Shown piece by piece: positions 15,826 through 44,601 of a stretch of DNA of 64,000 nucleotides. Source of the stretch: Alphaproteobacteria bacterium (GTDB lineage Bacteria > Pseudomonadota > Alphaproteobacteria > SP197); contig OZ219747.1 in NCBI GenBank assembly GCA_964291265.2, forward strand, positions 1,728,001-1,792,000, given 5' to 3'. A model generated the notes under the pieces. That model saw nothing but the letters and a program-made list of their open reading frames with translations. It was not told where the DNA came from and did no database searches. A program made the translations under genes and the position numbers. Numbering within the stretch: position 1 is the first letter of the stretch; each line of letters begins with the position of its first letter.

Positions 15826-17463
15826 AGCCTCCCATCGGTGGATGTGAAGGATGTTGGCGTCCCATGCCCTGGGCTGTGCCTGCCGGCGTCTTGCCGTAGA
15901 CTGGCACGAGAAGTACGGGGTGATGAGGCTGGTTCTGGCGTACACGTATGTGGACCCCGAGCACAGCGGCGCGAGCTACCGGGCGGCGGGCTGGGAGCGC
16001 TGTGAGGAGATGACCTCGGGTCGACCTCCCGGGGCCACCGGCCCGGGCGTGCGGCGGTCCGTATGGATGAAGCCCCTGACGCCTGACTGGCGCGCCGTGC
16101 TGTGCCGGGAGCCTGAGCGTGTCATGGGCCAGGCGGCGCCCCTTGTCGGTGATGACAGGACCGACTGGGCGATGAGGGAGTACGCCCGCAGCAGCCACAG
16201 TGACGTGCGCATCCGCGAGCGCCTTGTCACCATGGGCCGGGCGTGGAACGATCGTCCCGGCGCGATCCTGCCGGTGATCTTCCCCGGCGAGGCGGAGCAG
16301 AAGGCGGCCTACCGCCTGTTGTCGAATCCGAGGGTGACGATGGAGCATATCCTTGAGGGGCACCAGGAAGCGATGGTGGAACGCTGCCGTTCGCAGCGCC
16401 TGATTCTTGCCATCCAGGACACGACGTTCTTGAATTACAATGGCTTGGAGGCGACCAAGGGTCTTGTTGACATCGGCGGCGGCGGCTCGGGCGCCCTTGG
16501 CATGGCGGCCCATGCCGGGGTTGCCTTCAGCGAAGGCGGCTCATCCCTCGGCCTGTTCCATCTCGACGCCGACTTCCGTCTCAAGCCGGATCAGAAGAAG
16601 GACGAGCCAGACGACAAGGAGAGCCGGCGCTGGCTCGACGGGTACGACAAGGCCGTGGAACTGGCCGCTGCCTGTCCTTCGACAAGGGTGTTGGTGATCT
16701 GTGACCGTGAAGGCGACATCTGGGACCTGCTGGCCCGGAGCACGGAGCACGAGGCCGGTCTGCTGGTGCGTGTCAAGCGCTCGACACGGCGCCGCGTGAT
16801 CACCGCAACGGGCGCATGCCGGGACCTTTGGGACTACATGGCCGATGAGCCGTGCATGGCGACGAAGCAGATCGACATCGCAGCCTGCGGAGGGCCGCGT
16901 CGTCGCAAGGAGCGCAAGGGCGTACGCCTCGAAGTCCGTGCGGCAAGGGTCGACCTGGCTGCGCCGGACAAGAAGCCTCAGACAACGCCGCCGCTCTCCA
17001 TGATGGCCGTGCGGGTCACGGAACCCGCCCCACCGCCAGGCCGCGATCCTCAGGACTGGATGCTTCTCACCACCGAAGGCGACGTCACCGCAGACGATGC
17101 CCTCAAGACCGTCTCCTTCTACGAGAGGCGATGGTGGATCGAAGAGTACTTCAAGGCCCTGAAGGTCGGCACCCGGATCAAGGACCGGCGCCTCAACCAG
17201 GCCGACGATCTGAGGAAGTGCCTGGCCTTCGACGCCATCACCGCATGCCGCGTCATGACCGTCGAGCGTCTCGCACGCTCAGAGCCAGCCTGAGCCCGCA
17301 AGCCGCATCGTCCACCAAGGACGAGATCACGGTCCTTGCCCATCCACAACCGGCCGACAGCGCATGTCGCGTGGATCTCCCGATCCCGAACCGACCATCG
17401 AAGCCTTGCCGTCGAGGTCGCACGCCTGGCGGGCGTCATCCCCGGAAAGCGCCAACCCCTGCC
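15826..17463 (+). pseudogene. IS4-family (Tn5/IS50-like) transposase with DUF4338-like N-terminus, frameshifted and 3'-interrupted
   Basis: KAAYRLLSN, IQDTT, KESRRW, ICDREGDI, YERRWWIEEYFKALK; frameshifts at both ends; stops abruptly at KRQPLP. Confidence 0.85.
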
Positions 17464-17496
17464 GTCGGGTAGACGATTGGCGCGTGCATCCATAAG
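17464..17496 (-). ncRNA. Group II intron 3' terminus (distal domain VI)
   Basis: Minus strand reads CTTATGGATGCACGCGCCAATCGTCTACCCGAC, a typical bulged-A and AC end; joins 39672 via CATAAG. Confidence 0.7.
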
Positions 17497-17799
17497 CCGA
17501 AGTTCCAGGGCTGATCAGGCGCAAGTATATGATATGAATGACATTCAATGGATCTCAGAGGCGTCTGACTGGGTACATTACGGCTTTACACCGAGGAGTT
17601 TGAGTGTTCTTCTCTGGAGCGGCGTGGGCCGCGTAGTGATCTGTGTCGGCGGCGATTTAGAACGGCGGGATATTGGCGGAGAACCGCTCTTTTGGGCGCT
17701 GATCGTGTGAGTGGGTGACCACGACAGGAGAACGTGCGGCATTGGACGAAGGTCCGCCCGGTCTTTGTTTTCTGCCTATTGTTGGATCCCATTGGTCTT

Positions 17800-18135
17800 G
17801 CATTGACGTTGACGATGTCGTTCCGGTCGGCGTTTTCTGGCGTTCGGCGTTTGTGGAACGTGATGTGGGAGGGGAGCTTCAGGCTTTTGCGCGTGGTTTC
17901 GTTCTGGCGTTCTCCGTCCTCGTCGTGGTTCGTCGGGCGGGACGATCTCGAGGCTGGAGAGCTGACGGTTTCTGTTGCGCTGGGCGAAGAGGCTGCGTGC
18001 GTTGCGGTTGCGGCGGCGCAGGGTGCGGCAGGCGTCGAGTGTTTTCGGGCGGATGCTGCGACCTGTGAGCCAGTCCGGCGGCGGATCGGGCGTTGCTGCG
18101 GCTCAGCGGCTGCGGCAGTCTCGTGATGCGGTGTC
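17800..18135 (-). pseudogene. Internally deleted, diverged copy of the toprim gene
   Basis: Block-wise DNA similarity to 18935-19515 (e.g. GTGGGAGGGGAGCTTCA, GTGAGCCAGTCCGG). Confidence 0.7.
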
Positions 18136-18740
18136 GTTTGGACGGCCCGGGGGTTTCCCCGGGGAGGCTGAGAAGCGCGTCGGGGTGAGACGTTCTCATT
18201 CCTGGATGGTAACGCGTGACCGCGTTCAAGGGTCTTGCGGGATCACGTATCCCTTCCGTAGCCGCGTGGCGGTTCGATGTCCTCGAGGGCCTCGATGTCG
18301 GCATCGGCGACGATCTGCAGGCGTTCTCCGTAAGGCGTGTCACGGAGGGTTTCGGGGATGCTGTCGAGGCGGTCACGCCATTCGTCCTGCAGGGTGCGGC
18401 AGGCGTTGAGTGTTTTCGGGCGGATGCTGCGACCTGTGAGCCAGCCCGGCCAGCGGCTGCGGCAGTCTCGTGATGCGGTGTCGTTTGGACGGCCCGGGGG
18501 TTTCCCGGGGAGGCTGAGAAGCGCGTCGGGGTGAGACGTTCTCATTCCTGGATGGTAACGCGTGACCGCGTTCAAGGGTCTTGCGGGATCACGTATCCCT
18601 TCCGTAGCCGCGTGGCGGTTCGATGTCCTCGAGGGCCTCGATGTCGGCATCGGCGACGCTCTGCAGGCGTTCTCCGTAAGGCGTGTCACGGAGGCTTTCG
18701 GGGATGCTGTCGAGGTGGTCACGCCATTCGTCCTGCAGGG
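18018..18740. repeat. Near-identical tandem duplication of about 350-370 bp
   Basis: Copies start at 18018 and 18389 (GCAGGGTGCGGCAGGCG); copy 2 has a short deletion; junction at GCAGGG. Confidence 0.92.
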
Positions 18741-18909
18741 CGCGCAGTTCGGCCACGGCGTCGTTCCAGCGTTGCGGTCGCGAGCGCCGGTCACGGTGCT
18801 TTGGGGTGTGGACGGGAGGGATGCCGGCCTTGCGCCGTTCCCGGTATCGCCGCTGCTTTTCGGCGGGCGTGAGGGGCATGAGTGGTCTCCTTGTGACGGA
18901 CGTGGTCAT
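18589..18909 (-). CDS. Small mobile-element-associated hypothetical protein (AEKQRRYRER...PPRGYGRD)
   Basis: ATGA coupling to the toprim stop; motif style seen in mobile-element hypothetical proteins. Confidence 0.7.
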   Translation of the reverse strand: MTTSVTRRPLMPLTPAEKQRRYRERRKAGIPPVHTPKHRDRRSRPQRWNDAVAELRALQDEWRDHLDSIPESLRDTPYGERLQSVADADIEALEDIEPPRGYGRDT

Positions 18910-19799
18910 GATCTCGCTTGTGGTTCTTTGGTCCTGGCGTTGACGACGTCGTTCCAGTCGGCGTTTTCCGGCGGTCTGCGTCTGTGGAACGAGACGTGGG
19001 AGGGGAGCTTCATCTTTTTGCGCAGGGTTTCGGCCTGTCGCTCTCCGGCCTCGTCGTGGTCCTGGGCGAGGACGATGGTCCTGACGTTGGGCAGGCTGCT
19101 TGCGGCGAGGCTGATCTGTTCGTGCTGTCTTCGCGAGGGTGCCCCGGCGGTGGAGAGGAAGGCGTGGCTGGGGGGACATTGGTCGATCTGGGCCAGGCTG
19201 AGGGCGTCGACGGCGCTTTCGGTGATGACGAGGGCCTCGAGGTCCGCGGCGGTTCCGGCGCGGACGGCGAACAGGCTTCGGGTTCCACCGGTGGCGAAGC
19301 GTTTCGGTCCGTCGGGGGGACCGATCTCGAAGCCGGTGAGCTTTCGCTTCCTGTTGCGATGGGCGAAGAGGACGCGTCCGTTGTGGTCGCGGCGGACCAG
19401 GGGGCGGCAGGTGTCGAGGGTCTCCGGGAGGATGCCGCGCCCGGTGAGCCAGTCCGGGGCCGCATCGGGCGTTGCCGCGGCCCAGAGGCTGCGGAAGTCG
19501 CGTGGCGCGGTGTCGGGTGCTGCGAAGCGGGTGCAGATGTCGGCGAAGGCCAGTCCGCGGTTGAGCATGAAGTCGATGACGGTTCCGTTGTCTTCATCGT
19601 TCTGGGTGTTGAAGTAGACCCAGTGTCCGTTGTTGAGGCACTTCGTGACGAGCTTCGGCAGGCCGGGTGCGCACAGGACGGGGTTGGCGCGTGTCGAGGC
19701 CTGTTCGTCGCGGACGTATCCCCAGTCGGCGGCGATGCGTTCGAACGGCATGCGCTTGACGGCGTCGAAGTCGACGCGGCGGGGTTTATCGGGTTTCAC
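18906..19799 (-). CDS. DUF3991/toprim (primase-like) domain protein
   Basis: DNGTVIDF, WLTGRGI, ITESAVDALS, LAQDHDEAGE, DWND. Confidence 0.82.
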   Translation of the reverse strand: MKPDKPRRVDFDAVKRMPFERIAADWGYVRDEQASTRANPVLCAPGLPKLVTKCLNNGHWVYFNTQNDEDNGTVIDFMLNRGLAFADICTRFAAPDTAPRDFRSLWAAATPDAAPDWLTGRGILPETLDTCRPLVRRDHNGRVLFAHRNRKRKLTGFEIGPPDGPKRFATGGTRSLFAVRAGTAADLEALVITESAVDALSLAQIDQCPPSHAFLSTAGAPSRRQHEQISLAASSLPNVRTIVLAQDHDEAGERQAETLRKKMKLPSHVSFHRRRPPENADWNDVVNARTKEPQARS

Positions 19800-20487
19800 G
19801 CCTGAGCCGCCAGGAGTCGCTGTCGATGGAGATGAGGGTTGCGTCGTGCATGAGCCGGTCGACGGTGCCGGCGATGCCGGAGGCGCTGGGGAAGACGCGG
19901 TCCCACTGGGCGAAGGCGAGGCTTGTCGTGACCATGGTCGAGCGGCGCTGATAGCGCCGCGAGACGATGGCGTAGAGGATGTCGGCATGGTGGCTTTCGA
20001 GGGTCACGTAGCCGATTTCGTCGAGGATGAGCAGGCGGGGCCTGGCGAGGATCGCGAGGCGGCGGCGCAGCTCGCTGCGCGAGACGGTCTCGGCGAGTGC
20101 CTCGAGCAGTTCCGGCGCCTTCTCGAAGCGGACGGTGTGGCCGTGCAGCAGGGCCTGGTGCGCCACGTTGGCGGCGATCATGGTCTTTCCGGTGCCCTGC
20201 CCGCCGACGAGCACGGCGTTGTCCGCACGGTCGACGAAGCCGAGGCCGAGGAGCGCTTCGACATGAGCCCGGCTGATGTCGCGCGGCCATGTCCAGTCGA
20301 AGTCCGCCAGGGGCTTGAAGGCGGGCAGCCGCGCCGCGGCGCGGCGGCGCTCGTGGCTGCGGGCCCTGCGGGCCTGTTCCTCGCCGCTGACCACCTCCTC
20401 GATCCATGCGGTCCCGGCGACCTCGTCCCAGCGTTCGACGAGCCCGTGGAGGCCGAGCGCCCGGGCACGCTCCCTGAGCTCGCTCAT
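19786..20487 (-). CDS. istB: IS21 helper ATPase
   Basis: DFDWTWPR, GGQGTGKT Walker A, LLILDEIGY Walker B, VDRLMH; ATGA overlap with istA. Confidence 0.92.
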   Translation of the reverse strand: MSELRERARALGLHGLVERWDEVAGTAWIEEVVSGEEQARRARSHERRRAAARLPAFKPLADFDWTWPRDISRAHVEALLGLGFVDRADNAVLVGGQGTGKTMIAANVAHQALLHGHTVRFEKAPELLEALAETVSRSELRRRLAILARPRLLILDEIGYVTLESHHADILYAIVSRRYQRRSTMVTTSLAFAQWDRVFPSASGIAGTVDRLMHDATLISIDSDSWRLRRETR

Positions 20488-21977
20488 GTCTTGTTCCTGG
20501 CGCTGGCTTCGGGCCTGTCGTAGGCGTCGAGAGCGGTCCCCCGCGGCGTCGTGCCACGGCCGCCGCGGCCGTCGTCGGCGATGCTGAGGGGCGGCAGGCC
20601 CTGCTCCCGGCGGCGCTCCTCGATGATGACGCGCACGGTTTCGGGGTGGCACGAGCCGCGCTCCAGCGCCGTGGCGACAGCCCGGTCGAGAGCGTCGGCG
20701 CCGTGCGCGTTGAGAAGCGTCTCCAGCATCCGGGCGCAGGAGGCCACGTTGCGCCCGTTGGTCCCGGCGCGCGCCAGCATCTCCTCGGCCCGCGGCACGG
20801 TGCGCAGGACCCGGTCGCGGACGCTCATGGAGCGGGCCCGCCGCTTGCCCGCGGCGATCGCCCTGGCATGCTCCGGATCGGTGACGGCCTGCTTCCTGTC
20901 GTAGGAGCGTCGGTGGCGCGCGACCTCGTCGGCGCCGTCGAGGATGCGAACCTCGTCGCGGTCGGCGACCAGCGTCAGCAGGGCCTTGGAGAAGCCGGGG
21001 GGAACGCTGTAGTCGTTGGTGTCGAAGCGGGCGTGGCAGGTCTTGTCGATGCGCACCGGGCGGACCTCGTGATGCGGGAAGGGGTCGACGGGAAGGACGA
21101 TCAGGTGCTCCCTCTCCCGGGCGAAGGCGTCCCGCACCAGGAGACTGTCGTCGTCCGGCCAGGGCCGCTCCGCGGCGGCGCCGAAGCACCACTCCCGAAC
21201 TGCGGCGTTGAGCTCGCCGAGCGGGACCGTGATGTCGCGCCCGGCGAAGAACCCGGTGCGCGCGAAGCGCACACGGCGTTCCACGCGGCCCTTCTCCTGC
21301 GGGCTCCTGGGCCAGGCGGCGCTCGGTTCGAAGGCATAGTGGGCCGCAAGGCCGAGCAGCATCGGATGATAGGTGACCGCCTTGCCGCGGCGCGTCACCA
21401 CGGCACTCTTCAGGTTGTCGTACAGAAGCCTCCGCGGCACACCCCCGAATGCCGCGAAAGCCTCGACATGGCCTTGCAGGAAGCTGGCCATCCGCGCGTC
21501 GTGGAACAGGCTCAGGACAGTCTGGCGCGAGTAGCTGAGGGTGACGAGAAGCCCCATGAGCCTGCGCTCCGCCCGGCCGATGCGGACCTTCCCGAACTCG
21601 GCCCAGTCAACCTGCGCCTGCTCGCCCGGAAGGAAGCTCAGCCGCAGCGACGGCTCGGGCCTCTTCACCGGCCTCAGCCCGAGGCGGCGCAGGTCGTGAC
21701 GGAAGTGATCCTCGCCGCCGCGGTAGCCCAGAGCCACGACCTGTCGCCAGAGCGTGCTGGCCGGAAGGTCCGGCGACGCCTCAAGACGCTCCCCGAGGAA
21801 GGCAACGAAGGGGTCGATGAGCTTGGCCCGCGGCCGCCGCTCCTGCCCCGACGCCTTGAGCGCCCGCGTCACCGTGCCGTGGTGCACGCCGAGATGCCGG
21901 GCAATCGTCCCCACAGCCCAGCCCTCGGCCCGCGACAGCCGCACGATCGTCGCCCGCGTGTCCTCGTCGATCGCCAT
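20484..21977 (-). CDS. istA: IS21-family transposase
   Basis: N-terminal HTH, PGEQAQVDW, LYDNLKS, EKGRVER, NDYSVP. Confidence 0.94.
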   Translation of the reverse strand: MAIDEDTRATIVRLSRAEGWAVGTIARHLGVHHGTVTRALKASGQERRPRAKLIDPFVAFLGERLEASPDLPASTLWRQVVALGYRGGEDHFRHDLRRLGLRPVKRPEPSLRLSFLPGEQAQVDWAEFGKVRIGRAERRLMGLLVTLSYSRQTVLSLFHDARMASFLQGHVEAFAAFGGVPRRLLYDNLKSAVVTRRGKAVTYHPMLLGLAAHYAFEPSAAWPRSPQEKGRVERRVRFARTGFFAGRDITVPLGELNAAVREWCFGAAAERPWPDDDSLLVRDAFAREREHLIVLPVDPFPHHEVRPVRIDKTCHARFDTNDYSVPPGFSKALLTLVADRDEVRILDGADEVARHRRSYDRKQAVTDPEHARAIAAGKRRARSMSVRDRVLRTVPRAEEMLARAGTNGRNVASCARMLETLLNAHGADALDRAVATALERGSCHPETVRVIIEERRREQGLPPLSIADDGRGGRGTTPRGTALDAYDRPEASARNKT

Positions 21978-22009
21978 GAACTCCCTCCCTTTGGTTCCTC
22001 AACGCCGCA

Positions 22010-22540
22010 TCACAGGTCCCTCAGCACCACATGCGTCACGACCCGTCCGCATCTGGCGCACCGAAGCGGCGATTCGCGTCGCTCTTGCGCCTTCACAACC
22101 GCAGGTAGGGAGGTCGGCAGCAGTCGGGAAGGGTGGTCCGTAACGATTTCTTCAGAACCGGCGTCTCCAGACACCGCCGGAACGTCGCCAAGCAGCACCA
22201 CAGCAGACGTCTGCGTGTCCATGATCTCGGCAAGCATCGCCGCCCTGGCCTTCAACGCACGCGCCTCCTCCGCCTTGCGGAGCCGGTAACGCCGCTGGCG
22301 GTGACGGCCCGTCTCACGGCCCTTCAGCGTGCTCTGGTAGCGACGACGCGACGCGCGGCGCCGCTCGATCCGGGACCGCTCCCTGCACTCCTTGGAGCAA
22401 TACACATGCCCCCGGTCACACGACCGGCAGAGAACAACCTGCCGCTGACACCGCCTGCAGTTGAACAGTCGTCCTGTCGTGCACACCGTCCGTCTCGAGA
22501 GCGGGGGTGGACCCGGACGCAAAATGGCTCGACAATACAC
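22010..22540 (-). CDS. Cys-rich zinc-binding hypothetical protein upstream of istA
   Basis: CRRC...CRSCDRGHVYCSKEC, basic helix, C-terminal CARC; start may be GTG 22486. Confidence 0.7.
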   Translation of the reverse strand: MYCRAILRPGPPPLSRRTVCTTGRLFNCRRCQRQVVLCRSCDRGHVYCSKECRERSRIERRRASRRRYQSTLKGRETGRHRQRRYRLRKAEEARALKARAAMLAEIMDTQTSAVVLLGDVPAVSGDAGSEEIVTDHPSRLLPTSLPAVVKAQERRESPLRCARCGRVVTHVVLRDL

Positions 22541-22861
22541 GGGAGTTCGGTCCCCCGTGACCGGCTCGTCCGGGTGCTGCGCCGGGGGGCGTCACAACTC
22601 CGCCCGGCATCGCATCGCTCTTTCTCTTGATGCCGATCTAGCATCCACCCGGGGCGGCGGCAAAGACGCCGCCCCGGGACCGGACAACGCGACCCGCCCA
22701 CAGGGAAGACAAACAATCCCGCGAGTGCCTCGGAACCGGAACCCTCCCGGCAACCGTCACCAAGACCGAAGCAGAGGTCGACGGAACCCGAACCGGACCA
22801 AAACGACAATAGGAAAAGACGGCGGCGCTCGGGGAGACAACCAGCCGAACACTCAAACCAC

Positions 22862-22896
22862 GACAACAGGACGTGACAATAGGACCTGACAACAGG
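22862..22896. repeat. Three GACAAYAGG motifs at 13-bp period
   Basis: Copies at 22862, 22875, 22888; another at 22805. Confidence 0.8.
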
Positions 22897-23207
22897 GAAG
22901 AAACACGACCCTGACAAAGCGCGGCAAATCGCCGAAATCCCGCCGTTCTATGCAGCCATCAACGTAACTACTCACCCCCTACTGATGACGGATCGTTTTT
23001 CCTGACGGGTTCGGATCCGGCATTGTCTCTTGCCGCCTTCACTTGCTCGCTTCCGATGATCGGATGTGCGTGTTCCGACTGACAAGAAGCGGATCGATCT
23101 TCGGCTTCAGCTCCACGTTCCGGCCTTATATGGCCAGGTTTTGTCCCCGTGATGATGCAATCATCCACAGCGGTTGGCTGCCTTTCCAATCCTCTGGAGA
23201 TATGCGC

Positions 23208-23236
23208 TTGACATTGTAGGAGGGGCACTCTACATG
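23208..23236 (+). promoter_or_regulatory. Possible sigma70 promoter of the MTase-tnpC operon
   Basis: TTGACA-17 nt-TACATG; the -10 is weak. Confidence 0.35.
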
Positions 23237-23270
23237 CTGGCCATCGGGGCGGTTTGCGTCGGAGATATTG

Positions 23271-23351
23271 ATGGCGGCATGGTATGGATCGAAGGCGACG
23301 ACGGGTCTGAGCCAGGCGATCGTCGCGGCCATGCCGCCGCATGACGTGTAG
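23271..23351 (+). pseudogene. 5' fragment of the split Dam-like adenine methyltransferase (MAAWYGSKATTGLSQAIVAAMPPHDV*)
   Basis: GGAG RBS; YGSK and MPPHDV motifs continue in frame into YIEAFLGGG across the 37280-37291 repeat. Confidence 0.92.
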
Positions 23352-23758
23352 CAGAATTAGGGGTGAGGTTGTGCCACTTTGTTCGACTGATTTACGTTCA
23401 ATGGTCTCTCGTTTCAGCGTTATCCTACCTCTGGTTATCGTCATGTCAACCCATGCATGCGCTGGCGTAGAGTCCATGCAACGGGGGGATTCCCGCGACG
23501 GATTGTGACACCTGGGGACATGCTGGGATCATCGAAGGACGAGAGCGACGGAACGACAGCGGCGCCGGGCCGATATCCCGCTCTGCATGGGGCATGAGCG
23601 GACATGCCATGAGATCACGTACGGTTATCCTGCTACAACGCCTTGTCATGGGTGTTTCATGGGGGTATAATCACTCCATTCTTCCCTCGATTGCCCACTT
23701 GCATGGACTGTCAAGGGACTGTTTCCCACACCAAGCACTCACGACACGGGAGAATCCC

Positions 23759-24088
23759 ATGGCCGGAAGACCTGCGGGCGAGAAGCGCAAGGCGCGTTCC
23801 GTGATGGCGACCGACAGCGAGTGGCAACGCATCCGTGAGGGCGCCGCGGCAGCCCGCCTGTCGATCTCGGACCACGTGTTGAAGGTGCTCCTGGCGCCGC
23901 CGTCACCACCGTTGCAAGCCGCGGGCACGTTCCTCTCGGCCCGGGTGCAGCGCCGGGTGGCGCGCGCCGTGCTGGTTCTGGAGTGCATCGAGAAGATGCG
24001 CCTCGATCGCGCCGAGCTGGGCTCGGCATGGGAAGAGATCGCCGCCGAGGTCGATGGATGGCTCGACGACGAGGCGGCGCTGGGATGA
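23759..24088 (+). CDS. Ribbon-helix-helix / MobC-like protein 1
   Basis: RSVMATDSEWQRIREGAAAARLSISDHV pattern; GGAG RBS. Confidence 0.7.
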   Translation: MAGRPAGEKRKARSVMATDSEWQRIREGAAAARLSISDHVLKVLLAPPSPPLQAAGTFLSARVQRRVARAVLVLECIEKMRLDRAELGSAWEEIAAEVDGWLDDEAALG

Positions 24089-24101
24089 CCGGGAGGACGC
24101 C

Positions 24102-24434
24102 ATGAAGCTCGCGCGGCGGCACTGCATCTACTGTGATCCTCGGACATGGGAGAAGATCCGCAGGCGCGCCCGCAAGGCGGGCATGCCGGTCTCGCGTTTC
24201 GGGGTGCTGTGCTGTCTCAAGGCTGTTGAGGAGGGCACGGCCGAGGCGGTTCAACCGTCCGGCCATGCCCTCGTGATACCGCCGGACCGGCAGCGTCGGC
24301 TCCACGACGACATCGAGGCCATCTGGAACACAGGCCACGTCATGCTGGACGAGTCGGGGGAGACGAAGATCGGCGTGCTGACGAGCAACGTGCTGCGCTT
24401 CCTGCGGCTGACCGAACCGGAGGAAGAAGAATGA
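24102..24434 (+). CDS. Ribbon-helix-helix / MobC-like protein 2
   Basis: HCIYCDPRTWEKIRRRARKAGMPVSRFG; GGAGG RBS. Confidence 0.7.
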   Translation: MKLARRHCIYCDPRTWEKIRRRARKAGMPVSRFGVLCCLKAVEEGTAEAVQPSGHALVIPPDRQRRLHDDIEAIWNTGHVMLDESGETKIGVLTSNVLRFLRLTEPEEEE

Positions 24435-24853
24435 GGACACCGCGCCAGCGGCAGCAGGGCATGTCGCATTCGATCTCCTGCACGGACGAGGAATGGGAGA
24501 TGATCTGCGAGGGCGCGGCCCGGGCGGGGATCGGCGCTTCGGCATGGTTCACACGGTGTGCGCTTGACGTGAACCCGCTGTCGGGGAAGGCGCGTCCCCT
24601 GGTCCTCGACGAAAGGCAACAGGAGAACCTGGTCAAGGCGATCACGCGCCTTGCCGAGCCGTTTTCGGGTCATCCGGAGAGACTGTCCCGCATCTGGGAG
24701 GATGTCCGGTATCTCCTGCGGAAACGCGTTCGGGCGCTGATGCGACAGGGCCGGTCCGACGAAGCGCGCGCCAGGCTTCGGGAGGCGTTCGGCGACAAGC
24801 GGGCCGCCTGGATCGAAAGCTGGGCGCGGCAGCGGCGCCATGGCGATGACTGA
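24431..24853 (+). CDS. Ribbon-helix-helix / MobC-like protein 3
   Basis: HSISCTDEEWEMICEGAARAGIGASAWF; ATGA coupling. Confidence 0.7.
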   Translation: MRTPRQRQQGMSHSISCTDEEWEMICEGAARAGIGASAWFTRCALDVNPLSGKARPLVLDERQQENLVKAITRLAEPFSGHPERLSRIWEDVRYLLRKRVRALMRQGRSDEARARLREAFGDKRAAWIESWARQRRHGDD

Positions 24854-24858
24854 GAGGA

Positions 24859-31960: not shown

Positions 31961-32236
31961 CGTCTGCGTGGGAGCCGGGGCAAGGGCATGCGAGCCAGCT
32001 CCACCGAGGATTCAAGCCAGCCATTCAGCCGTCCATTGAACCTCTGTAGTAGTTTTCGTGAATCACCTGCATCGGTATCGAAAGTCACAGGGTGCGTTGT
32101 CGCTGCGCCCTGTCTTCGGAAGACCACGTCGGTGGAGGACAGCGCCACTGCCCGGATGCGAAGTCCGTGGAGACGGGTGCAGGGACGTCGCGCCCGCAGG
32201 AACGACACGCTGTTCAAATCAAACGGAATGGTTTCA

Positions 32237-32479
32237 TCAGTACTGCCGATCGGCTATAGCGCAAACAACAGACCGGCGCTGGTGGGAGGCGTGGGGCTGC
32301 TTCGCTCGTTCGACGGGTGGTTGCCATTGATCCAACAACAGACCCGCCTTCTTCGCGTCTTCGTAGCTCTCGATGTCCTCGTGCCCGACTCGCTTCGATC
32401 GCCAATGTCCGTCGATACCAGAAAACCCATTTCCTTTGAGAATTTTCCCGCACACGGGACACTCCTTACCGCCCTTCAT
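32237..32479 (-). CDS. Small CxxC...H...H zinc-finger-like protein
   Basis: CPVCGKILKGNGFSGIDGHWRSKRVGH; GGAGG RBS; homologue at 57785. Confidence 0.65.
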   Translation of the reverse strand: MKGGKECPVCGKILKGNGFSGIDGHWRSKRVGHEDIESYEDAKKAGLLLDQWQPPVERAKQPHASHQRRSVVCAIADRQY

Positions 32480-32834
32480 CGTCCGCCCTCCCGTCACACG
32501 GGAAATGCGCCCGTAGGGCTGAGGTGACCACGACTAGGGGGTGGTGGTCAAGCTCTTCGGGATTTCTTCGCATCCATATTCGCACGGCATCCCGAATGTC
32601 CCCGCTGGTGCTGCCAGATGTGCAGAACTTCAACTGTGGATCGAAACCGGTGTAGTCCCAAATGTTTTCTAATGCATCTCGAACACCGATGACGTACATC
32701 ATAAAAGCCCCTTCCAACGCTATGTCGTCAGAAGTCGCCCAATCCAACAAATGGTTGCCATCTTGAAAGGCCAGTGTCTCTTTCGGTACTGCAACCAAGG
32801 CTGTGCATATCGCGCCGATCAGCCATTTTCTCAC
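32466..32834 (-). CDS. Rap1a/Tai-family immunity-like secreted protein
   Basis: Signal peptide, DGNHL, YVIGVRD, FC, NPEELDH, ALRAHFPC. Confidence 0.75.
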   Translation of the reverse strand: MRKWLIGAICTALVAVPKETLAFQDGNHLLDWATSDDIALEGAFMMYVIGVRDALENIWDYTGFDPQLKFCTSGSTSGDIRDAVRIWMRRNPEELDHHPLVVVTSALRAHFPCDGRADDEGR

Positions 32835-32968
32835 TCGGCATCTCCGAGACGGCGGTGCAACGCGGTCCGGTACGGACTTGGTGCGGCGGAACAGGGCGAG
32901 GACCGGCTTCTCGAGCGTCGCGCCCACGAGATCGTGCTGCTTCGGATCAGACATAGAAACGCCTCTGA

Positions 32969-34192
32969 TCATTGCACCGCCCTCCATTGAGCCATGGTCT
33001 TGCCGCCCTTACTCCGGTTGCAACCGGAACAAAGCAGTTGAAGGTTGTCGGGGTGATCAGTTCCACCCTTCGACCTGGGTAGAATATGATCCACATCCAT
33101 CACGCGAAACGGGAAGTGCGTGTTGCATCCCACACAGACGCCCTCCTGTTCCCCATAGAGGCGATGACGGTGCGTCCGGTAGTTGGGAAGATCGCCAAGG
33201 TCCGAGCGCTTCGGTGGGTCTGTGATCGCAATTGCGCCGCCCCATAGATTGCCGCCAAGATGCTTCCCGCCCTTCTCGTTGGCGCGATCTTCCGCAATCC
33301 TCTCATTGACCAACTTCACGGCCAGCGCCGACAGGTCGATGCCTGCCCACTGCCGCCCCATGCGATCTGCAGCTACCAACGCCGTCGCACAGCCGCAGAA
33401 CGGATCAAGCACTATGTCGCCGGGGTTGCTAGAAGCGCGGATTACGCGCTCTAGCAGTGCCAGAGGCTTCTGCGTCGGGTAACCAAGGCGCTCCGAGGAA
33501 GATCGCCCGATTGCGTTCATGTCCCAAACATCGCGCATTGAGGCCATAGTATACCAACGGCCAAATTCATCCTGATATTTCTCGACTCCTTTAAATCCAG
33601 GCGGCGCGCTTGTTGAATAAGATCTTTCTTTTTGAACGTTGAAAACGTGTTTGCTATGCTTCGCCGCATAGTACAGCAGAATGTCGTGCTTACGCCCGAA
33701 CCAACGCTTGCTAACACCGCCGGTTCGATAGGACCATACAATTTCGTTCAAGAAATTCTTATGCCCGAAAACTCCATCCATAAGCAGCTTAAGGTAGTGC
33801 GAAGCAGTGGGATCGCAATGCAGATAGATGCTCCCGGACGGCTTCAGAATGCGACTCATTTCCAGTAATCGCACGGCCATGAAGATGAGATATGACTGCA
33901 TACCCTTGCCGTGCGACTGGCGAGCGGCCTCGATCACGGAGTAGGCGGCGGGGTTGCGGTCTGCCAGTTCGCCATGCTCGTGGACGTCGATATCGTCCAA
34001 GGTCCACGCGTCTTTGAAAGCAGCGCCCGCTGCTTTGCTTCCTATCGGCGCCTCGTAGTGGCGATTGCTGTTGAACGGTGGGTCGAGATAGATCAAATCG
34101 ATACAGCCATCGTTCATGCCGCGCATGATCGACAGGTTGTCGCCAGTCCAGACCGTGCTGCTGGCGAAGTTCGCGAAGTTCGGTTCAGGCAT
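32969..34192 (-). CDS. N6/N4 DNA methyltransferase fused to a C-terminal HNH endonuclease
   Basis: IYLDPPF, YPTQKP, LDPFCGCAT; CVGC...DHILPRSKGG...NLQLLCSGCNRSK. Confidence 0.92.
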   Translation of the reverse strand: MPEPNFANFASSTVWTGDNLSIMRGMNDGCIDLIYLDPPFNSNRHYEAPIGSKAAGAAFKDAWTLDDIDVHEHGELADRNPAAYSVIEAARQSHGKGMQSYLIFMAVRLLEMSRILKPSGSIYLHCDPTASHYLKLLMDGVFGHKNFLNEIVWSYRTGGVSKRWFGRKHDILLYYAAKHSKHVFNVQKERSYSTSAPPGFKGVEKYQDEFGRWYTMASMRDVWDMNAIGRSSSERLGYPTQKPLALLERVIRASSNPGDIVLDPFCGCATALVAADRMGRQWAGIDLSALAVKLVNERIAEDRANEKGGKHLGGNLWGGAIAITDPPKRSDLGDLPNYRTHRHRLYGEQEGVCVGCNTHFPFRVMDVDHILPRSKGGTDHPDNLQLLCSGCNRSKGGKTMAQWRAVQ

Positions 34193-34197
34193 CGTTT

Positions 34198-34665
34198 TCA
34201 ATCTTCAATCGGCCGTTGCGTGATGGATAGAGAGGCTTCGCCAGTAATCGTCCCCGACATTGCTATTTCGAGCCGCATCGGTGTCGCAAGCCTAAGTGTG
34301 CCATCCGCCATAATGACGACTGTCGTCCGGTCTGGGAGTGCCGCATAGCGATGCCCATCTCGGAGCGGATACGTCGGAAGCTGATTGACGGTCTCCATCA
34401 GGCTGGCTAACTGCGCAGACTCCCGTGCCTCGAGCGCCATCTGTAGTGCGGTGCGAAGCGCCTTTTCTGATCCGACAGTTTCGATATTCAGCACCTGCTG
34501 TATCGAGGGCGACACAGAATTCTTCGCCTCAAGAGCCGCAATGCGCTTGCGAAGGCCCCAAAACCCGACCATCGTTAGAAGACTGCCTGACAGGAACCAC
34601 CCGACCCGTATGAACACTTCGGTGAATGTGGCACCCAAAATTGCTTGATATGTGAACTCTTCCAT
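34198..34665 (-). CDS. Hypothetical protein with N-terminal membrane anchor
   Basis: 155-aa ORF with a hydrophobic segment, abutting the MTase-HNH gene. Confidence 0.55.
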   Translation of the reverse strand: MEEFTYQAILGATFTEVFIRVGWFLSGSLLTMVGFWGLRKRIAALEAKNSVSPSIQQVLNIETVGSEKALRTALQMALEARESAQLASLMETVNQLPTYPLRDGHRYAALPDRTTVVIMADGTLRLATPMRLEIAMSGTITGEASLSITQRPIED

Positions 34666-34885
34666 CTGCGCATCATACCGCCTTCTGCCGCACCATCAAC
34701 CTCTTTGTAATCCCCTTGATTTAAGTAGGCTTGACTTTCTGACTGATGAGGCTCGCACCCAAGCTCTACGCCTTGAGGAATTCTCTCGTTGACGCCCTCA
34801 TTACGCATTGAACATCTCGGTTGGAGAACATGCAGATACGCTATCAATGGTTGGTGTACCCGTCCAGACTCCTTGCGCCGTCGGA

Positions 34886-36046
34886 TCACGAATCAGACAG
34901 ATCACAGAGCCGAGCAATGGCGGCTCCTGTGCGCTCGGCGGCGGCTTCCACGTCCCTGTCCTGGACATGCGCATAGCGCAGTGTCATGGAACAGCGGCTG
35001 TGGCCCAGGAGCCTGGCGACGATCGGCAATGGAATACCGCTCATGACCGCATGCGAGGCAAATGTGTGACGCAAGTCATGCAAGCGAACATCCTCGAGAC
35101 CGGCTTCCTTGCGAACCCTGTACCAAAGTCCGAGTTCACGTCCGCGTGGTCTCGCAGGATCACGCGGCGAGGGAAAGACCCAGGCGCTGCCCACCCTTGG
35201 CTGGCGCTCGACAAGTTCCCGGGCAACGGCTGGCAGCCAGACTTCGCGCGGTCCGGTCTTTGAATCCGTCAATCTGAGCGTGGCGCCATGGACCTCGCAC
35301 CATCGCAATCCGACGATTTCGTTGCGTCGGCACCCGGTCAGGAGGAGCAGGCGGATCATGTCAGCCTGGGCCTGGCGCGAGGGACGCTTCGCGACCAACC
35401 TGTCCAGTGTCCTGTAGAGACGGGCGACTTCCTCCCTGGACAGGAACCGCGTCAGGGCCGGGCGTCTGTTTCGCTTTACGCCCCGCGTTGGATCGTTGCT
35501 GACATGGCCGCTCTCGACGGCAAACTTCATGATGCGGCGCAACGTTCCCAGCGTCTCGTTGGCGCCGCCCGGTGCAACCTGACTGTAGTCATGGAACCAC
35601 GCCTCGACATGACGAGGCCCGATGTGATCGAGTCGCAGGGAACCGAATGACGGCAGCAATCGCCCCTTCAGTTCGCGGACAAGGCGTGCGCGTCGCTGAG
35701 GTTTGCAGTGGTCGAGGACTGCTTCCTTCCATGGCCCTTCGGCGAAAGCGGAAAAGAGCGGGACGATCGTCTCAGCCTTGCCATCGCCGGACTGCTCCCG
35801 GGCCATGAGGGTCAGACAGTCTCGACGTGCCTCCTCGACGGTCTTCAGTGCGACGGGTCCGATGGTCACGCGCGCCGGGCTGTCGTTCCTGAAGCCCTGC
35901 CAGACATAGCTGCGATGGCCCGAGGGCCGAACCCGCACGCCAAGGCCGGCGATGCGAGTGTCCCAGACCGTATACTCGACCTCGCGTGGGCGGAGCTTCT
36001 CGACGGCAGCGTCCGTCAACCTCACCTTCCTCGTGCCGGTTCTCAT
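34886..36046 (-). CDS. Tyrosine integrase (second gene of pair 2)
   Basis: VWDTRIAGLGVRVRPSG; TGCR, SKTG, HDLRH, LGH, RYAH; ATGA overlap. Confidence 0.93.
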   Translation of the reverse strand: MRTGTRKVRLTDAAVEKLRPREVEYTVWDTRIAGLGVRVRPSGHRSYVWQGFRNDSPARVTIGPVALKTVEEARRDCLTLMAREQSGDGKAETIVPLFSAFAEGPWKEAVLDHCKPQRRARLVRELKGRLLPSFGSLRLDHIGPRHVEAWFHDYSQVAPGGANETLGTLRRIMKFAVESGHVSNDPTRGVKRNRRPALTRFLSREEVARLYRTLDRLVAKRPSRQAQADMIRLLLLTGCRRNEIVGLRWCEVHGATLRLTDSKTGPREVWLPAVARELVERQPRVGSAWVFPSPRDPARPRGRELGLWYRVRKEAGLEDVRLHDLRHTFASHAVMSGIPLPIVARLLGHSRCSMTLRYAHVQDRDVEAAAERTGAAIARLCDLSDS

Positions 36047-37164
36047 GCCAGGCCCTCCGACAGGACCGGCGCCACGACATCGATGGCCTCGCGAACGGCC
36101 CCGTCGCCGAGATGCGTATAGCGCAGGGTCGTGGACGCCCTGCCGTGACCGAGAAGCTTGCCGATAGTGAGAATTGTCTCGCCATTCTGGAGTGCGACAC
36201 TGGCATAGCTGTGGCGAAGGTCGTGCAGGCGGATGTCGTCCAATCCGGCCTCCGCGCGGACCTGCCGCCAGAATCCGTCGAGATGACACCTCTTCGGTGT
36301 CGTTGCCGAAAAGACCCATATGTTGTTCCGCGGCAGGTTGTCGAGCACGTCGCGCGCGGCTTGCGCCAACCAGATCGTGCGTGGGCCAGTCTTGCTGTCC
36401 GTCAGGAACAATCTGCCTTCACGGTAGTCCGTCCACCTGAGCATGATGATCTCGCTCTTGCGGCAGCCCGTGAGGAGAAGCATCTGCATGGCGGCCGTGT
36501 GCAGGGGACGCCTTGACCGGTGGCGCGCCAGGACAGCTGCAAGACTGCGGTACTCCTCCGGCAGGAGGAACCGTTCGCGCCTGGTCTCGCGGTAGCGGCG
36601 GATACCGGCACAAGGGTTGCTGTTCTCCGGCCTCAAGCCCCAGGCTTCGGCCTTCTGCATGATGACGGAAAGGACCGGCGCAGACCGGTTTGCCGCCGCC
36701 GGCGTTGCATGGAGAGAACGGAACCATGTTGCGACATCCTGCCGGGTGATGGCGCTGATCATGCGACCCGCGAAGAACGGCAGGATCTGTCTGCGAAGGT
36801 AGATCCGGTTGACCCTGAGGGTGTCGGGTTTCCAGAGCCGTTCGTGGTGGACAAGGACTTCCTGTGCGACGGTCTCGAAGAGTGCGTCCCTCTCGACCCC
36901 GGGGTCCGCAGGGCCGCCGTTCCTGTACGCCGCCAGCATGGCGCGTGCCCGTTGACGCGCCTGCGCCACGGTCACGGCGCCGGCATCGTCGAAGGTCTTC
37001 CAGATCCTCCGGCCCTCGTGCTGGGAGTGAATGAAGTAGCGTCTGGTGCCCGAGGGCATGATGCGGATACCGAAGCCCTTCAGTTCGGTATCGCGTGCGT
37101 CCAGGATGACCTTCCCTGGCTTGAGCTTGTCAACCCGGTGCTGGGTGAGGTGCGTTGTGGCCAT
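36043..37164 (-). CDS. Tyrosine integrase (first gene of pair 2)
   Basis: GGAGG RBS; GFGIRIMPSG; TGCR, SKTG, HDLRH, LGH, RYTH. Confidence 0.93.
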   Translation of the reverse strand: MATTHLTQHRVDKLKPGKVILDARDTELKGFGIRIMPSGTRRYFIHSQHEGRRIWKTFDDAGAVTVAQARQRARAMLAAYRNGGPADPGVERDALFETVAQEVLVHHERLWKPDTLRVNRIYLRRQILPFFAGRMISAITRQDVATWFRSLHATPAAANRSAPVLSVIMQKAEAWGLRPENSNPCAGIRRYRETRRERFLLPEEYRSLAAVLARHRSRRPLHTAAMQMLLLTGCRKSEIIMLRWTDYREGRLFLTDSKTGPRTIWLAQAARDVLDNLPRNNIWVFSATTPKRCHLDGFWRQVRAEAGLDDIRLHDLRHSYASVALQNGETILTIGKLLGHGRASTTLRYTHLGDGAVREAIDVVAPVLSEGLA

Positions 37165-37279
37165 GTTGCCTCCGGTGTTCTGTGACATCGGGGGAAGAAA
37201 GGCATCGCCTTTCCCTCTGATGTTGCAGAAACGAGAGGAGTTAAGTATGTTATATCAGTTGATTAGCACCACAGGTGCG

Positions 37280-37886
37280 GCATGACGTGTACATCGAGGC
37301 GTTCCTTGGGGGCGGCGCGATCATGAAGCGCAAGCCACCGGCGCTGCGCAGCATCGGCATTGACCTCAACCGCCGGGCGATCGACACCTTCCGCTGTGAC
37401 TATCCGGTGGAGCTTCACCAAGGCTGCGCCCTGCGTTTTCTCGAGACCTTCGCCTTCCAGGGCCGCGAGCTGGTCTACTGCGACCCGCCTTACGTGCAGT
37501 CGACGCGCCGGTCGCAGCGCCGCTACCGCTTCGACTGCACGGACGACGACCATGTTGCGCTCCTTGACATCCTGACGTCGCTGCCCTGCCAGGTGATGAT
37601 CTCCGGCTATCCCTCGCGGCTCTACGACACGCACCTCGCCGGCTGGCGCTCGGCCGAGGTCCAGGTCAACAACCAGGCCTGCGTTGTCACCGAGAAGCTG
37701 TGGTTCAACTTCGCACCGGGCCGACCGCACTGGCATACGTGTGCGGGCAGGAACTCGATCGACCGCCAGCGCATCAAGCGCCTCGCAGAGAGCTGGGCGC
37801 GGCGCTACCGGACGATGCCCGAAGGCGAGCGGCTCGCCGTGCTGGCGGCAGTCATGGCGGTGGAGGCGTCGTCATGGCGAGCGTGA
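37280..37886 (+). pseudogene. 3' part of the split Dam-like (D12 class) adenine methyltransferase
   Basis: HDVYIEAFLGGGA (motif I), YCDPPY (motif IV), MISGY, TEKLW; N-terminus lies at 23271. Confidence 0.92.
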
Positions 37887-39352
37887 ACGGCACGTCTGTG
37901 CGCCAGGAGGCCGACATCTTCCAGAAGCAGTTCCAGGATCTCCGCAAGCAGGGCAAGGTCAACCAGGAGTGCGAGGAGCTCTTCCGCGGCATGCTGATGC
38001 TGATAAAGCTGTTGCTGACCGTGCTCATGGAGAAGATCACACGTAAGACAAGCCGGAACTCCGGTCTGCCGCCATCGCAGACTGACAAGGACGAGAGCGC
38101 GAGGCGCACCGGGAGCAACGGCAAGGGCCCGAAGCCGAACCAGCAGACGGGCGACAACCTGCGCACGACCACCGTCGAGGAGACGATCGTCGTTGATGCC
38201 TGCGACGCCTGCGGCGCCGACCTCCACGACGTTGACCCCGTCGACCGGGAGTGCCGCGTCCTCTACGACATCGTGTTCGAAGTCGTCGAGCGCCGCGTCG
38301 AAGCCGAGATCAAGGAATGTCCGAAGTGCCGGGCCCGGACCAAGGGCCGGTTCCCAGACAACATGCCGGGCCCCCTGCAGTACGGCGTCAGCATCCAGGC
38401 CCTCGTCATCAACCTGCTGATCGCCCAGATGCTGTCCCTGCGTCGTGCCGTCTCGCTCGTGCACGCGATCTCCGGCATCAAGCTCTCCGAGGCGACCTGC
38501 CTCGGCTATGTCCGGCGCTTTCACGATGCCCTCGCATCATGGGAGGAGGCCGCCGTGGCCCATCTCCTGCAACAACCGGCCCTGCATGTCGACGAGACCG
38601 GCTTCCGGGTCGCCGGCAAGACCCAATGGCTCCATGTCGTCACCGACGGCACCCTGACGTGCAAGTTCCCGCACCCCAAGCGCGGCCGGGAGGCGATCGA
38701 AGAGATCGGCATCATCCCGCGCTACAAGGGCGTCCTGATCCACGACTGCTGGGCTGCCTACATGGGCTACGATCAATGCCGCCACCAACTGTGCGGCAGC
38801 CATCTCCTGCGCGAACTGACCTTCGTCGTCGAGTCCAACGGCTACCGCTGGGCGCGACTGATGAAAAGCCTGCTGCGCGAGGTCTCCCGCAGGGTCAACA
38901 AGAGCGCATCCAAGACCTTGAACGAGGCCGACCGCCGGGCCGTGCGCAAGCGCTACCGCACCATCCTCACCCAGGGCGCCAAGGAACTGCCCGACATCCC
39001 GCCACGGACGAAAGGAAAACGTGGACGCATCGCAAAGTCCGACGCGCACAACCTGCATGAACGTCTCGTGAAACACGAGAAGTCCGTCCTGCGCTTCATG
39101 AAGGACCCCAACGTCAGTTTCACCAACAATACCGGAGAGCAGAAGATCAGGATGACAAAGGTCAAGATCAAGGTGTCCGGATGTTTCCGCACCATGCCCC
39201 ACGCCAAAGCATGGTGCCGAGGCTCAAGCTACCTCACCACCATGGACGCACTCGGCTACAACCCTCACGTCGCCATCCACATCGCCCTCGACGGAAAGGC
39301 CGTAGACATCCTCAACCAACACTACGGACAACCAGACCCTAACAAGGGGTGA
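37874..39352 (+). CDS. tnpC: IS66-family transposase
   Basis: SRNSGLPPS, CDAC/CPKC finger, HVDETG, IHDCW, HQLCGSHLLREL, FTNNTGEQKIR. Confidence 0.94.
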   Translation: MASVNGTSVRQEADIFQKQFQDLRKQGKVNQECEELFRGMLMLIKLLLTVLMEKITRKTSRNSGLPPSQTDKDESARRTGSNGKGPKPNQQTGDNLRTTTVEETIVVDACDACGADLHDVDPVDRECRVLYDIVFEVVERRVEAEIKECPKCRARTKGRFPDNMPGPLQYGVSIQALVINLLIAQMLSLRRAVSLVHAISGIKLSEATCLGYVRRFHDALASWEEAAVAHLLQQPALHVDETGFRVAGKTQWLHVVTDGTLTCKFPHPKRGREAIEEIGIIPRYKGVLIHDCWAAYMGYDQCRHQLCGSHLLRELTFVVESNGYRWARLMKSLLREVSRRVNKSASKTLNEADRRAVRKRYRTILTQGAKELPDIPPRTKGKRGRIAKSDAHNLHERLVKHEKSVLRFMKDPNVSFTNNTGEQKIRMTKVKIKVSGCFRTMPHAKAWCRGSSYLTTMDALGYNPHVAIHIALDGKAVDILNQHYGQPDPNKG

Positions 39353-39671
39353 GTAGTTACCCATCAACAATCTGGAAGGGCCCGGCGCCTGGCGAAGTGG
39401 AGCGCCACGGTGTTGCGTGTGATGGTGCGCTTCTTGACCTTTCCGACTTCGCGCCGGGGGCTCGTGGAGCATGATGGCGGGTGGAGGGGACTGGTTGAGG
39501 AGGGCTTTGATGCACATGGCTACCGTGCATGGGCGTACCGCGGACGTATGTCAAGCACAAGGTGCATTCATACATGGGTACACAGTGAAGCCTGATGAAT
39601 CCAACAAATAACGCAAAATCAGTGAGTTGTTGTGAAGATCAGCAGGAAATCGTCCGGAACTTCGGCATAAG

Positions 39672-39995
39672 CGGAAGCTCTGTCCGTCACCGCCCTTTCG
39701 ATTGCGGGCGGGTTCGCATTTCTCCCATAGGCCACGTTTTCAACAGCCCCCTGAAATTCCGTACGTCCGGTTCCCGGGTACGGCTTCAAGCATCAGGCAC
39801 CCGCAGGAGTTCGGTGCGGTGCTTTCCGCCGGACATGCCACGGTCAAGGCTGACCCAACCTTAACCCACGGCGTCTCCTGAGCGTTTTCTCCGTCCTTGT
39901 CGCCCGCGGTGCGATTGCTGTCCGCATTGAGCTGTACTCCTTCCACAGGTGGAGGGAAACGGGGCCAGCGTTCCTCTCCCTCTGGAGCGCCGACC
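39672..39995 (-). ncRNA. ORF-less, 5'-truncated group II intron remnant (late domain I to proximal domain VI)
   Basis: Domain V GAAGCCGTACCCGGGAACCGGACGTACGGAATTTC (39753-39787) with AGC triad, then G-run and extended domain VI with GCAATCGAAAG; no RT ORF; 5' limit approximate. Confidence 0.78.
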
Positions 39996-40191
39996 GCGCC
40001 ACCCCGCTCACGGCCAGACTCCGCCTCTCGGTGGCGCCGGGCGGTGTGACAGAGCCGGTGGATGGCAGCTCCTGCGGCGGCTATGTAAACCGGCTGGTGC
40101 GTCCTCCCCAGTTGAAGGCTCGCGCTGTTGTCTTGATTGCATCGCAGTCGCCGATAGAATGCAGCCAGCCGGCGTCCGGGTGAATAGGGGC

Positions 40192-40437: not shown

Positions 40438-40447
40438 GCCGCACGGA

Positions 40448-44534: not shown

Positions 44535-44601
44535 GTCTTCGCCTTTCCCGGCCTGCCGCGATCGGCCGGGAGGTCGCGCGTTGCTGAGAGAGCGGTCGAC
44601 G

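Follow-up and report, generated by a model that had tools for sequence, protein, structure and literature searches.

How does a bacterial genome come to hold six mobile elements one inside another? The question is raised by a stretch of 64,000 nucleotides from Alphaproteobacteria bacterium (GTDB lineage Bacteria; Pseudomonadota; Alphaproteobacteria; SP197; GenBank assembly GCA_964291265.2, contig OZ219747.1, positions 1,728,001 to 1,792,000 of the forward strand), hereafter the window, in which an initial annotation described a six-layer stack of insertions between positions 15,826 and 39,995. The nested anatomy and the insertion order of the inner four layers are confirmed by our analysis, namely, an IS1634-family MITE (miniature inverted-repeat transposable element), an insertion sequence (IS) of the IS21 family, an IS66-family element with a Dam-like gene, and an integrative and mobilisable element (IME) with two integrases. 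In the reading that we prefer, to which we assign a probability of about 0.78, these four elements are nested in the remnant of a group II intron that was likely once inserted in an IS4-family element, and the stack arose from ordinary, loosely specific insertion combined with survival in dispensable DNA. The genome comprises 4.83 Mb in 2 contigs, and 22.3% of its bases are present in at least two other copies. Positions below are those of the window unless prefixed with C2, a contig of the genome. The layers are the following.

15829..17463, plus strand: layer 1, IS4-family fragment (622-2252 of 2379; NF033590 above cut-off; 95-96% identical to intact copies)
17464..17496, minus strand: layer 2a, 3' end of a group II intron without an open reading frame (ORF-less), last part of domain VI, including the left CATAAG at 17491-17496
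17497..17643, plus strand: layer 3a, left part of the 438-bp IS1634 MITE, terminal inverted repeat CCGAAGTTCC, ending in ATCTG at 17639-17643
17644..22963, minus strand: layer 4, IS21-family element, its last base displaced to 39369 (NF033546; 29 other full copies)
22964..23350, plus strand: layer 5a, IS66 left end (terminal inverted repeat GTAACTACTCACCCC) and 5' part of the Dam-like gene
23339..23350, no strand: far attachment (att) site of the IME, a 12-bp identity block; minus strand, ACAC + GTCATG
23351..37279, minus strand: layer 6, IME (Pfam, NCBIfam)
37280..37291, no strand: near att site of the IME; on the minus strand, the conserved end of the family, CGCACC-NNN-GGTGCT, comes next
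37292..39360, plus strand: layer 5b, remainder of the Dam-like gene (with DPPY; ends at 37886), IS66 transposase at 37880-39352, right terminal inverted repeat (PF02086, PF03050, NF033517)
39361..39374, plus strand: IS66 duplication CCATCAAC, displaced IS21 terminal A (39369) and IS21 duplication ATCTG
39375..39671, plus strand: layer 3b, right-hand portion of the IS1634 MITE with the right CATAAG (39666-39671)
39672..39898, minus strand: layer 2b, domain V of the intron with most of its extended domain VI (similarity to the intron family)

The evidence for the inner layers is a set of four direct-repeat pairs, all of which we located where the initial annotation had placed them: CATAAG at 17491 and 39666, ATCTG at 17639 and 39370, CCATCAAC at 22956 and 39361, and GCATGACGTGTA at 23339 and 37280. 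These paired duplications flank the inner layers in four of four cases and thereby fix the order of layers 3 to 6; the earlier claim about the insertion order stands to that extent, and its intron-into-IS4 step has a single junction behind it. It had further been claimed that removal of each inner layer restores the host element, and a search of the genome for intact copies of the reconstructed elements had been proposed. Excision within our script did restore such elements, namely, an IS66 (2456 bp; 10 free copies over the full length, 96.3-99.6% identity), an IS21 (5321 bp; 29 further full-length copies, 98.0-99.6%) and a mini-element (438 bp; 10 copies, 78.5-100%, the one at C2:3619537 being identical). 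Since the terminal A that is present at all other listed IS21 right ends is here displaced to 39369, the IS66 inserted 1 bp inside the IS21 end, and this IS21 copy, whose end-binding repeats are now separated by 16.4 kb from its terminal CA, is predicted to be immobilised. The proposed history is thus that the intron, likely by insertion into an IS4 element, would have formed an outer pair, both members of which are now relics, and that the MITE, then IS21, then IS66 with its Dam-like gene, and then the IME would each have entered the previous layer.

A repeat-rich genome can also yield a stack of this kind as an assembly artefact, the more so as five of the six layers are multi-copy and the left junctions are not bridged by any listed public contig piece in the public run X1, which may represent the source sample. 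However, the four locus-specific duplications match across 13.9-22 kb, the whole genome lies in only 2 contigs, the IME interior is at single-copy depth (52-62) in run X1, and the depth at the empty MITE junction is that of one copy, which fits two identical copies of which only one is empty. We therefore regard an artefact as extremely unlikely. One X1 contig extends 30 letters past the left boundary of the IME, just under the 31-letter criterion, and a 13,941-bp skip seen in joined form in public contigs is explained by the free IS66 copies. We rejected a second public run, X2, as a source of this locus, as it contains a related IME and not this locus; that related IME has no cover over 32016-33217.

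Whether the stack calls for a preference for mobile DNA can be judged from where the other copies of these elements have gone. We mapped the copies whose two ends are paired by a duplication (32 of IS21, 16 of IS66, 6 of the MITE and 8 of IS1634; 62 in total). Repeats, which account for 22.3% of the genome, hold 35 of these sites; unique intergenic DNA (14.1%) holds 21, and unique genes (63.6%) hold 6. The resulting insertion densities stand as 157:149:9.4, with no significant difference between repeats and intergenic DNA (p = 0.89) and an approximately 16-fold depletion in unique genes. Likewise, called genes contain 6 of the 27 non-repeat sites, versus 252 of 300 random non-repeat positions (p = 5e-11). 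Under 8 definitions applied to 63 sites (the IS21 of the window added), repeats were never significantly above intergenic DNA and the depletion of genes held throughout; under the stricter definitions, which consider both flanks, repeats fell below the intergenic density (p = 0.017-0.14). The same picture was obtained with four young families removed, and for IS21 and IS66 separately. A preference of other copies for mobile DNA, a point raised by the initial annotation, is thus not supported, and the safe-haven idea survives as passive persistence in DNA dispensable to the host, not as active preference. Because 69% of the repeat DNA is called coding and transposase genes are hit at the full rate, we infer purifying selection instead of avoidance of coding sequence; insertions would persist where the host can spare the DNA, and hits in genes would be removed. 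Within this genome, equal densities in mobile and intergenic DNA together with the 16-fold depletion of genes are sufficient, and deep nesting needs neither targeting nor conflict between elements.

The remaining question is whether six layers are too many for such a process. Further inserts are found inside 13 of the 62 paired elements, and in a neutral simulation (no deletions, assumed size mixes, 300 runs per mix) a depth of at least five was reached in 45-69% of the runs and a depth of at least six in 8-18%, suggesting that the stack is most likely a tail event of the ordinary process. Several points weigh against our reading. A depth of six is the tail of the neutral model, whose size mix was assumed; the intron-in-IS4 step has one junction to support it; and 2 of the 16 IS66 sites, including the one 1 bp inside the IS21 end, overlap a terminus of another element, where 12 of 400 random sites lie near an end cluster, the 2 of 16 being too few to separate from chance. 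In the density test, multi-copy DNA stood in for mobile DNA, the count covered only elements with paired ends and thus no IS4 copy (0 of 7 paired by duplication), and genes were called by a home-made hexamer caller, so that 'intergenic' includes pseudogenes. Moreover, survivor data of this kind may also fit a process in which host genes are actively avoided, for example by way of transcription or nucleoid proteins.

Two rival explanations came with the initial annotation. If one or more of these transposases or integrases recognised mobile DNA by its ends, bound transposase or sequence and inserted there preferentially, several observations would be accounted for: for 15 of the 32 IS21 sites both flanks are repeats, against 20.5% of the whole genome (p = 8e-4), two IS66 copies lie at termini, IS1634-family copies directly adjoin one another in 2 of 8 cases, and the ORF-less intron family homes into its own domain VI elsewhere in the genome. 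However, the IS21 excess disappears once unique intergenic DNA is taken as the reference, the strict both-flank definition gives repeats a lower insertion density than intergenic DNA, the four IS21-in-IS21 insertions occupy four different positions, and the IS1634 neighbours are explained by a duplicated NYTARN target, which 12 other duplications mostly fit; it is likely that the duplication recreates the target side by side. We therefore consider such targeting improbable. IS1634-family elements lie directly beside another member's end at C2:319250, 3515751 and 135678, and the second of the two IS66 copies at termini (C2:3684408-3686899) has an 8-bp duplication that overlaps the terminus of an IS1634-family element. 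The other proposal, that newcomers are selected to disable residents at domain VI, a terminal repeat or a methyltransferase gene, draws on the split right end of IS21 and on the interruption of the Dam-like gene by the IME just before the motif for binding S-adenosylmethionine (SAM), in a gene that probably matters to IS66 because it is conserved (DPPY in 80 of 80 metagenomic homologues; the IS66 transposase directly downstream in 59 of the 73 homologue loci with at least 500 nt of downstream DNA). Against it, each hit disables only one of at least 11 IS66 or 30 IS21 copies, and nesting is reciprocal, with IS66 inside the end of another IME, inside IS66 and inside IS1634, and IS21 inside IS21. 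A methyltransferase gene occurs in only 1 of 33 IME flanks, ACAC is found at the homologous position in only 9 of 80 Dam-like homologues, and the MITE sits 27 nt from the intron 3' end in the distal extension of domain VI, not at the branch point. Conflict, which the density tests and the IME flank count already largely refute, is thus even less probable than targeting, at a few chances in a hundred at best. The functional positions named in its support do exist, but they are hard to avoid in compact elements, given the coding share of repeat DNA and the fact that domain VI makes up 114 of the 262 remaining intron nucleotides.

For the IME, the choice of site can be followed further through its family. 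The family is expanded in this genus: at a threshold of E <= 1e-80, intA, the gene of one of its two integrases, is matched in 12 of the 22 genomes of the same genus, with as many as 17 matches per genome, and in 0 of 38 others searched, and the second integrase gene, intB, follows it in all 21 foreign loci fetched, as in the window, with a relaxase within the fetched 20-40 kb in 13 of the 21. Further family loci are present at C2 2108127-2160233, 2338090-2366768 and 3662064-3680030, as well as in genomes G013, G004, G005 and G015, and another twin-integrase IME starts in the window at 331-2758, which is 95% identical over 15.8 kb to the C2:2108127 element and has a different overlap. As an exact-repeat search for the att sites was swamped by chance matches, the ends were located from the conserved terminal motif. 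They take the form ACAC-N6-(C/CC/AC)GCACY with a matched variable 6-mer. Among near ends from four genomes, 29 of 31 consist of ACAC, a variable stretch and the conserved element end (two further near ends of this genome, off-pattern, were dropped from the set of 31), and 30 of the 31 seven-letter variable stretches are distinct. In 6 of 8 elements the two ends carry the same 6-mer after ACAC, and in the other 2 there is one mismatch between them, the eight counted being those whose far end was found by its own signature; eight more far ends, found with a filter of 6 matches out of 7, were excluded as independent evidence. Empty target copies exist for two of the elements. Integration specific to methyltransferase genes was ruled out by the flank and homologue counts given above. 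In the IME at G015:C1 near 1181500, the far-end-like TGCTACAC lies ahead of the near end, as a circle junction or tandem array would show, and its overlap equals that of another family locus (L006).

These ends suggest a further explanation, for the IME layer alone, in which a carried 6-bp overlap that matches a multi-copy IS or intron funnels the element there in each new host. The target 10-mer has 23 copies in the genome, 20 of them in repeats at IS66 positions (two of these being the IME's own att copies). Our preferred reading also draws on this count: the IME presumably landed in the Dam-like gene because its integrases need only ACAC and a matching 6-bp overlap, and that 10-mer occurs almost only in the multi-copy IS66. 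Multi-copy flanks are found at 6 of the 12 IME near ends in this genome, the two ends of an element mostly agree, and pairs that are at least 90% identical share at least 4 of 5 variable letters in 4 of 6 cases, versus 15 of 522 more distant pairs. However, three of the six close pairs are not independent, being drawn from a single genome with three copies, of which two occupy the same intron site; elements that are 89-90% identical differ at 3-4 of the 5 letters; and size-biased sampling of ACAC sites gives the same flank counts without a carried overlap. Such capture by homology covers one layer only and is compatible with our preferred reading of the stack, and we put it forward tentatively, with the balance somewhat against it. 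A related point is how the matching ends arise. They would probably reflect overlap homology of a lambda-like type, in which mismatches are tolerated and the half-site is minimal; copying of the target, that is, a true target-site duplication of the 6-mer by the IME, is its rival; the two elements with one end mismatch and the overlaps shared by close relatives favour a carried overlap. More doubtful is the broader proposal that the innermost layer represents an undescribed mobilisable family whose two tandem Arm-type integrases need only a 4-bp ACAC half-site and a homology-matched 6-bp overlap that drifts by tolerated mismatches, and which is thus re-programmable and funnelled into matching multi-copy IS and intron DNA, some of the nesting being emergent and sequence-guided. 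If overlap homology does guide the IME, the family would offer a candidate retargetable integrase for large cargo (the elements here span 14-52 kb) and a model for the drift of site specificity.

By its gene content, the innermost element is an IME: it has integrases, att repeats and a relaxase, and no secretion system of its own, the type IV secretion ATPase PF03135 having no match in the whole genome. Its excision is predicted to restore the IS66. It carries the following genes.

23594-24853: three NikA-like ribbon-helix-helix genes
24859-30213: MOBF relaxase-helicase
30401-31960: 519-aa protein of unknown type
32466-32987: Rap1a-like gene
32969-34201: N6/N4 methyltransferase-HNH fusion
34886-36049: intB
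36043-37164: intA

Both integrases are adjacent Arm-domain tyrosine integrases in which the catalytic R, H-x-x-R and H...Y motifs are present, and their N-terminal PF13356 domain, which we take to be equivalent to DUF4102, suggests the IntSXT group, not IntTn916. The cargo gene at 32969-34201 has a low GC content and encodes an N6/N4 DNA methylase fused to a C-terminal HNH nuclease.

The element that the IME entered shows the IS66 traits, namely, an IS66 DDE transposase (NF033517), GTAA ends and an 8-bp duplication. We found no tnpA or tnpB in the reconstructed IS66, whose sense strand holds only the 224-aa Dam-like gene and the transposase, a single-transposase organisation that is presumably ISBst12-like. 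The motifs of this putative methyltransferase are intact, and it scores far below the TIGR00571 cut-off. The IS21 layer likewise has the traits of its family, with istA (20484-21977) and istB (19786-20487), TG...CA ends with repeated binding sites and a short duplication; NF033546 is above its cut-off, and istB scores 192 bits against a cut-off of 200 for NF038214, just under. It also carries a Toprim passenger (18906-19790, Toprim_2) and internal repeats, and the region 17715-19799, with internal partial duplications at offsets of 346 bp and 1379 bp and the Toprim gene, is kept in the IS21 copies. The 438-bp element encodes no transposase of its own and has a 6-bp duplication. Since its ends are common to a 1954-bp autonomous element that encodes an IS1634 transposase (NF033559), we assign it as an IS1634 MITE.

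The two outer layers are relics. The IS4 copy lacks the first 621 of its 2379 bp, a deficit that the initial annotation had missed, as well as the last 127 bp, and contains a premature stop at 17293. Its homology ends at 17463/17464, in agreement with the reported cut of the transposase at 17463, and exactly where the intron 3' end CTACCCGAC (minus strand), common to the family's other 3' ends, starts; a junction at the exact intron 3' end is what retrohoming would leave. The remnant corresponds to nucleotides 627-888 (262 nt) of an 888-nt ORF-less family, to which it is 85.6-87.1% identical, the 5' 626 nt and domains I-IV being gone; therefore, the homology ends at 39898, short of the earlier layer limit of 39995. 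Intact members of the family match RF02003 at 65-68 bits (gathering 49), whereas Rfam gave no intron match on the window or on the remnant, and the short fold of domain V is no better than that of shuffles (z = -0.42), so the identity of the intron rests on its intact relatives. As previously noted, the intron 5' end joined to the distal IS4 part is missing: no such junction was found anywhere in the genome. A lone distal IS4 piece at C2:4436628 was rejected as the missing half, since no intron end precedes it. An intact IS4 transposase (~770 aa; C2:434277-436655) is fused to an N-terminal Druantia DruA domain.

The intron family also forms six ORF-less group II twintrons (C2:484944-486719, ~1366526-1368300, 3117383-3119158, 4089561-4091336 and a tandem pair at 3769211-3772762), in which an 888-nt intron lies in the domain VI base of a 93% identical 888-nt intron and the outer sites differ. 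By their sequences, these intron-in-intron arrangements are real self-targeting. The only reverse transcriptase family found in the genome (17 copies) has no DNA similarity to the twintron introns.

The whole stack sits in an accessory island of about 34 kb, bounded by panB and a DUF427 gene.

15283..49394, no strand: accessory island (same-genus genome comparison and Pfam)

We placed the stack in this island because the island is absent in relatives: in four of five same-genus genomes panB is joined directly to the DNA equivalent of ~49395, and in the fifth ~1.3 kb lie between. According to Pfam, the island carries toxin-antitoxin pairs, a TIR-domain fragment and other cargo besides the stack. 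The right side, at 40192-42001, holds a FitA-like antitoxin whose partner is degraded, together with a CAP12/Pycsar TIR fragment and an MNT-HepT pair.

How, then, does this stack compare with known systems? CTnDOT is a low-specificity tyrosine-integrase element. Tn916-type integrases are the standard low-specificity case (PMC8138268), and site-promiscuous integrase clades are mentioned (PMC9580842), among which the twin-integrase family may already be catalogued. The IME resembles low-specificity IMEs in its Arm-domain tyrosine integrase, its relaxase without a secretion system and its many unrelated targets, but differs in having two tandem integrases, a fixed ACAC half-site and a matched variable overlap. 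[quoted passage not shown] SEs are described with the order intA-tfp-intB-srap, without mobilisation genes and with a 6-bp footprint of the previous site, and no Tfp/Srap homologues are reported from Alphaproteobacteria in that work (PMC10214605, bioRxiv 2022.09.22.508988). In contrast to the four core genes of an SE, intA and intB are here adjacent (in the window and in 21 of 21 foreign loci), both of Arm type and similar in size. The IME thus lacks the SE gene order; it also carries a MOBF relaxase, and its two ends usually have matching 6-mers.

The IS layers match the IS1634, IS21, IS4 and IS66 families by NCBIfam cut-offs, by duplications of 6, 5 and 8 bp and by terminal inverted repeats. 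However, the IS21 departs from the family norm in its Toprim passenger and its 5.3-kb length, the IS66 carries a Dam-like gene instead of tnpA/tnpB, and the intact IS4 transposase has its DruA fusion. Upf31 of IncP-1beta plasmids, a Dam-like protein of by description ~225 aa like that of our IS66, shows no GATC methylation and represses its own expression (PMC11997246), but the gene here lies in an IS66, ahead of the transposase. In the literature searched, with most subscription papers outside its coverage, we found no description of an IS66 with a Dam-like passenger or of a MOBF element that combines twin Arm-type integrases and an ACAC-N6 site.

Most group II introns of bacteria are truncated and located among mobile DNA, and twintrons up to five deep are described (PMC4424553). 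The stack is like those of Methanosarcina acetivorans in its deep nesting without effect on host genes and in its truncated intron amid mobile DNA, whereas the latter comprise up to five introns nested by site-specific homing and the inner layers here are unrelated and have no shown preference. The idea of safe havens, and whether they are selected, is reviewed in PMC8598171, and the treatment of observed insertions as non-lethal survivors is found in PMC4072520. Nested elements are common and are named Russian dolls, with ~434,000 of 1.8 million recombinase islands flagged as nested (PMC8989519; see also PMC3852290). Our stack is similar to these in consisting of elements inside elements that can be separated in silico, but differs from those described in its strict depth of six, its four resolvable duplications and the absence of any resistance cargo seen in it. 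It also mixes four mechanisms, namely, DDE transposition, retrohoming, MITE mobilisation and tyrosine recombination. It thus offers a clean teaching case in which all parts are of known kinds, and its twin-integrase IME with a short variable att site is a lead worth following.

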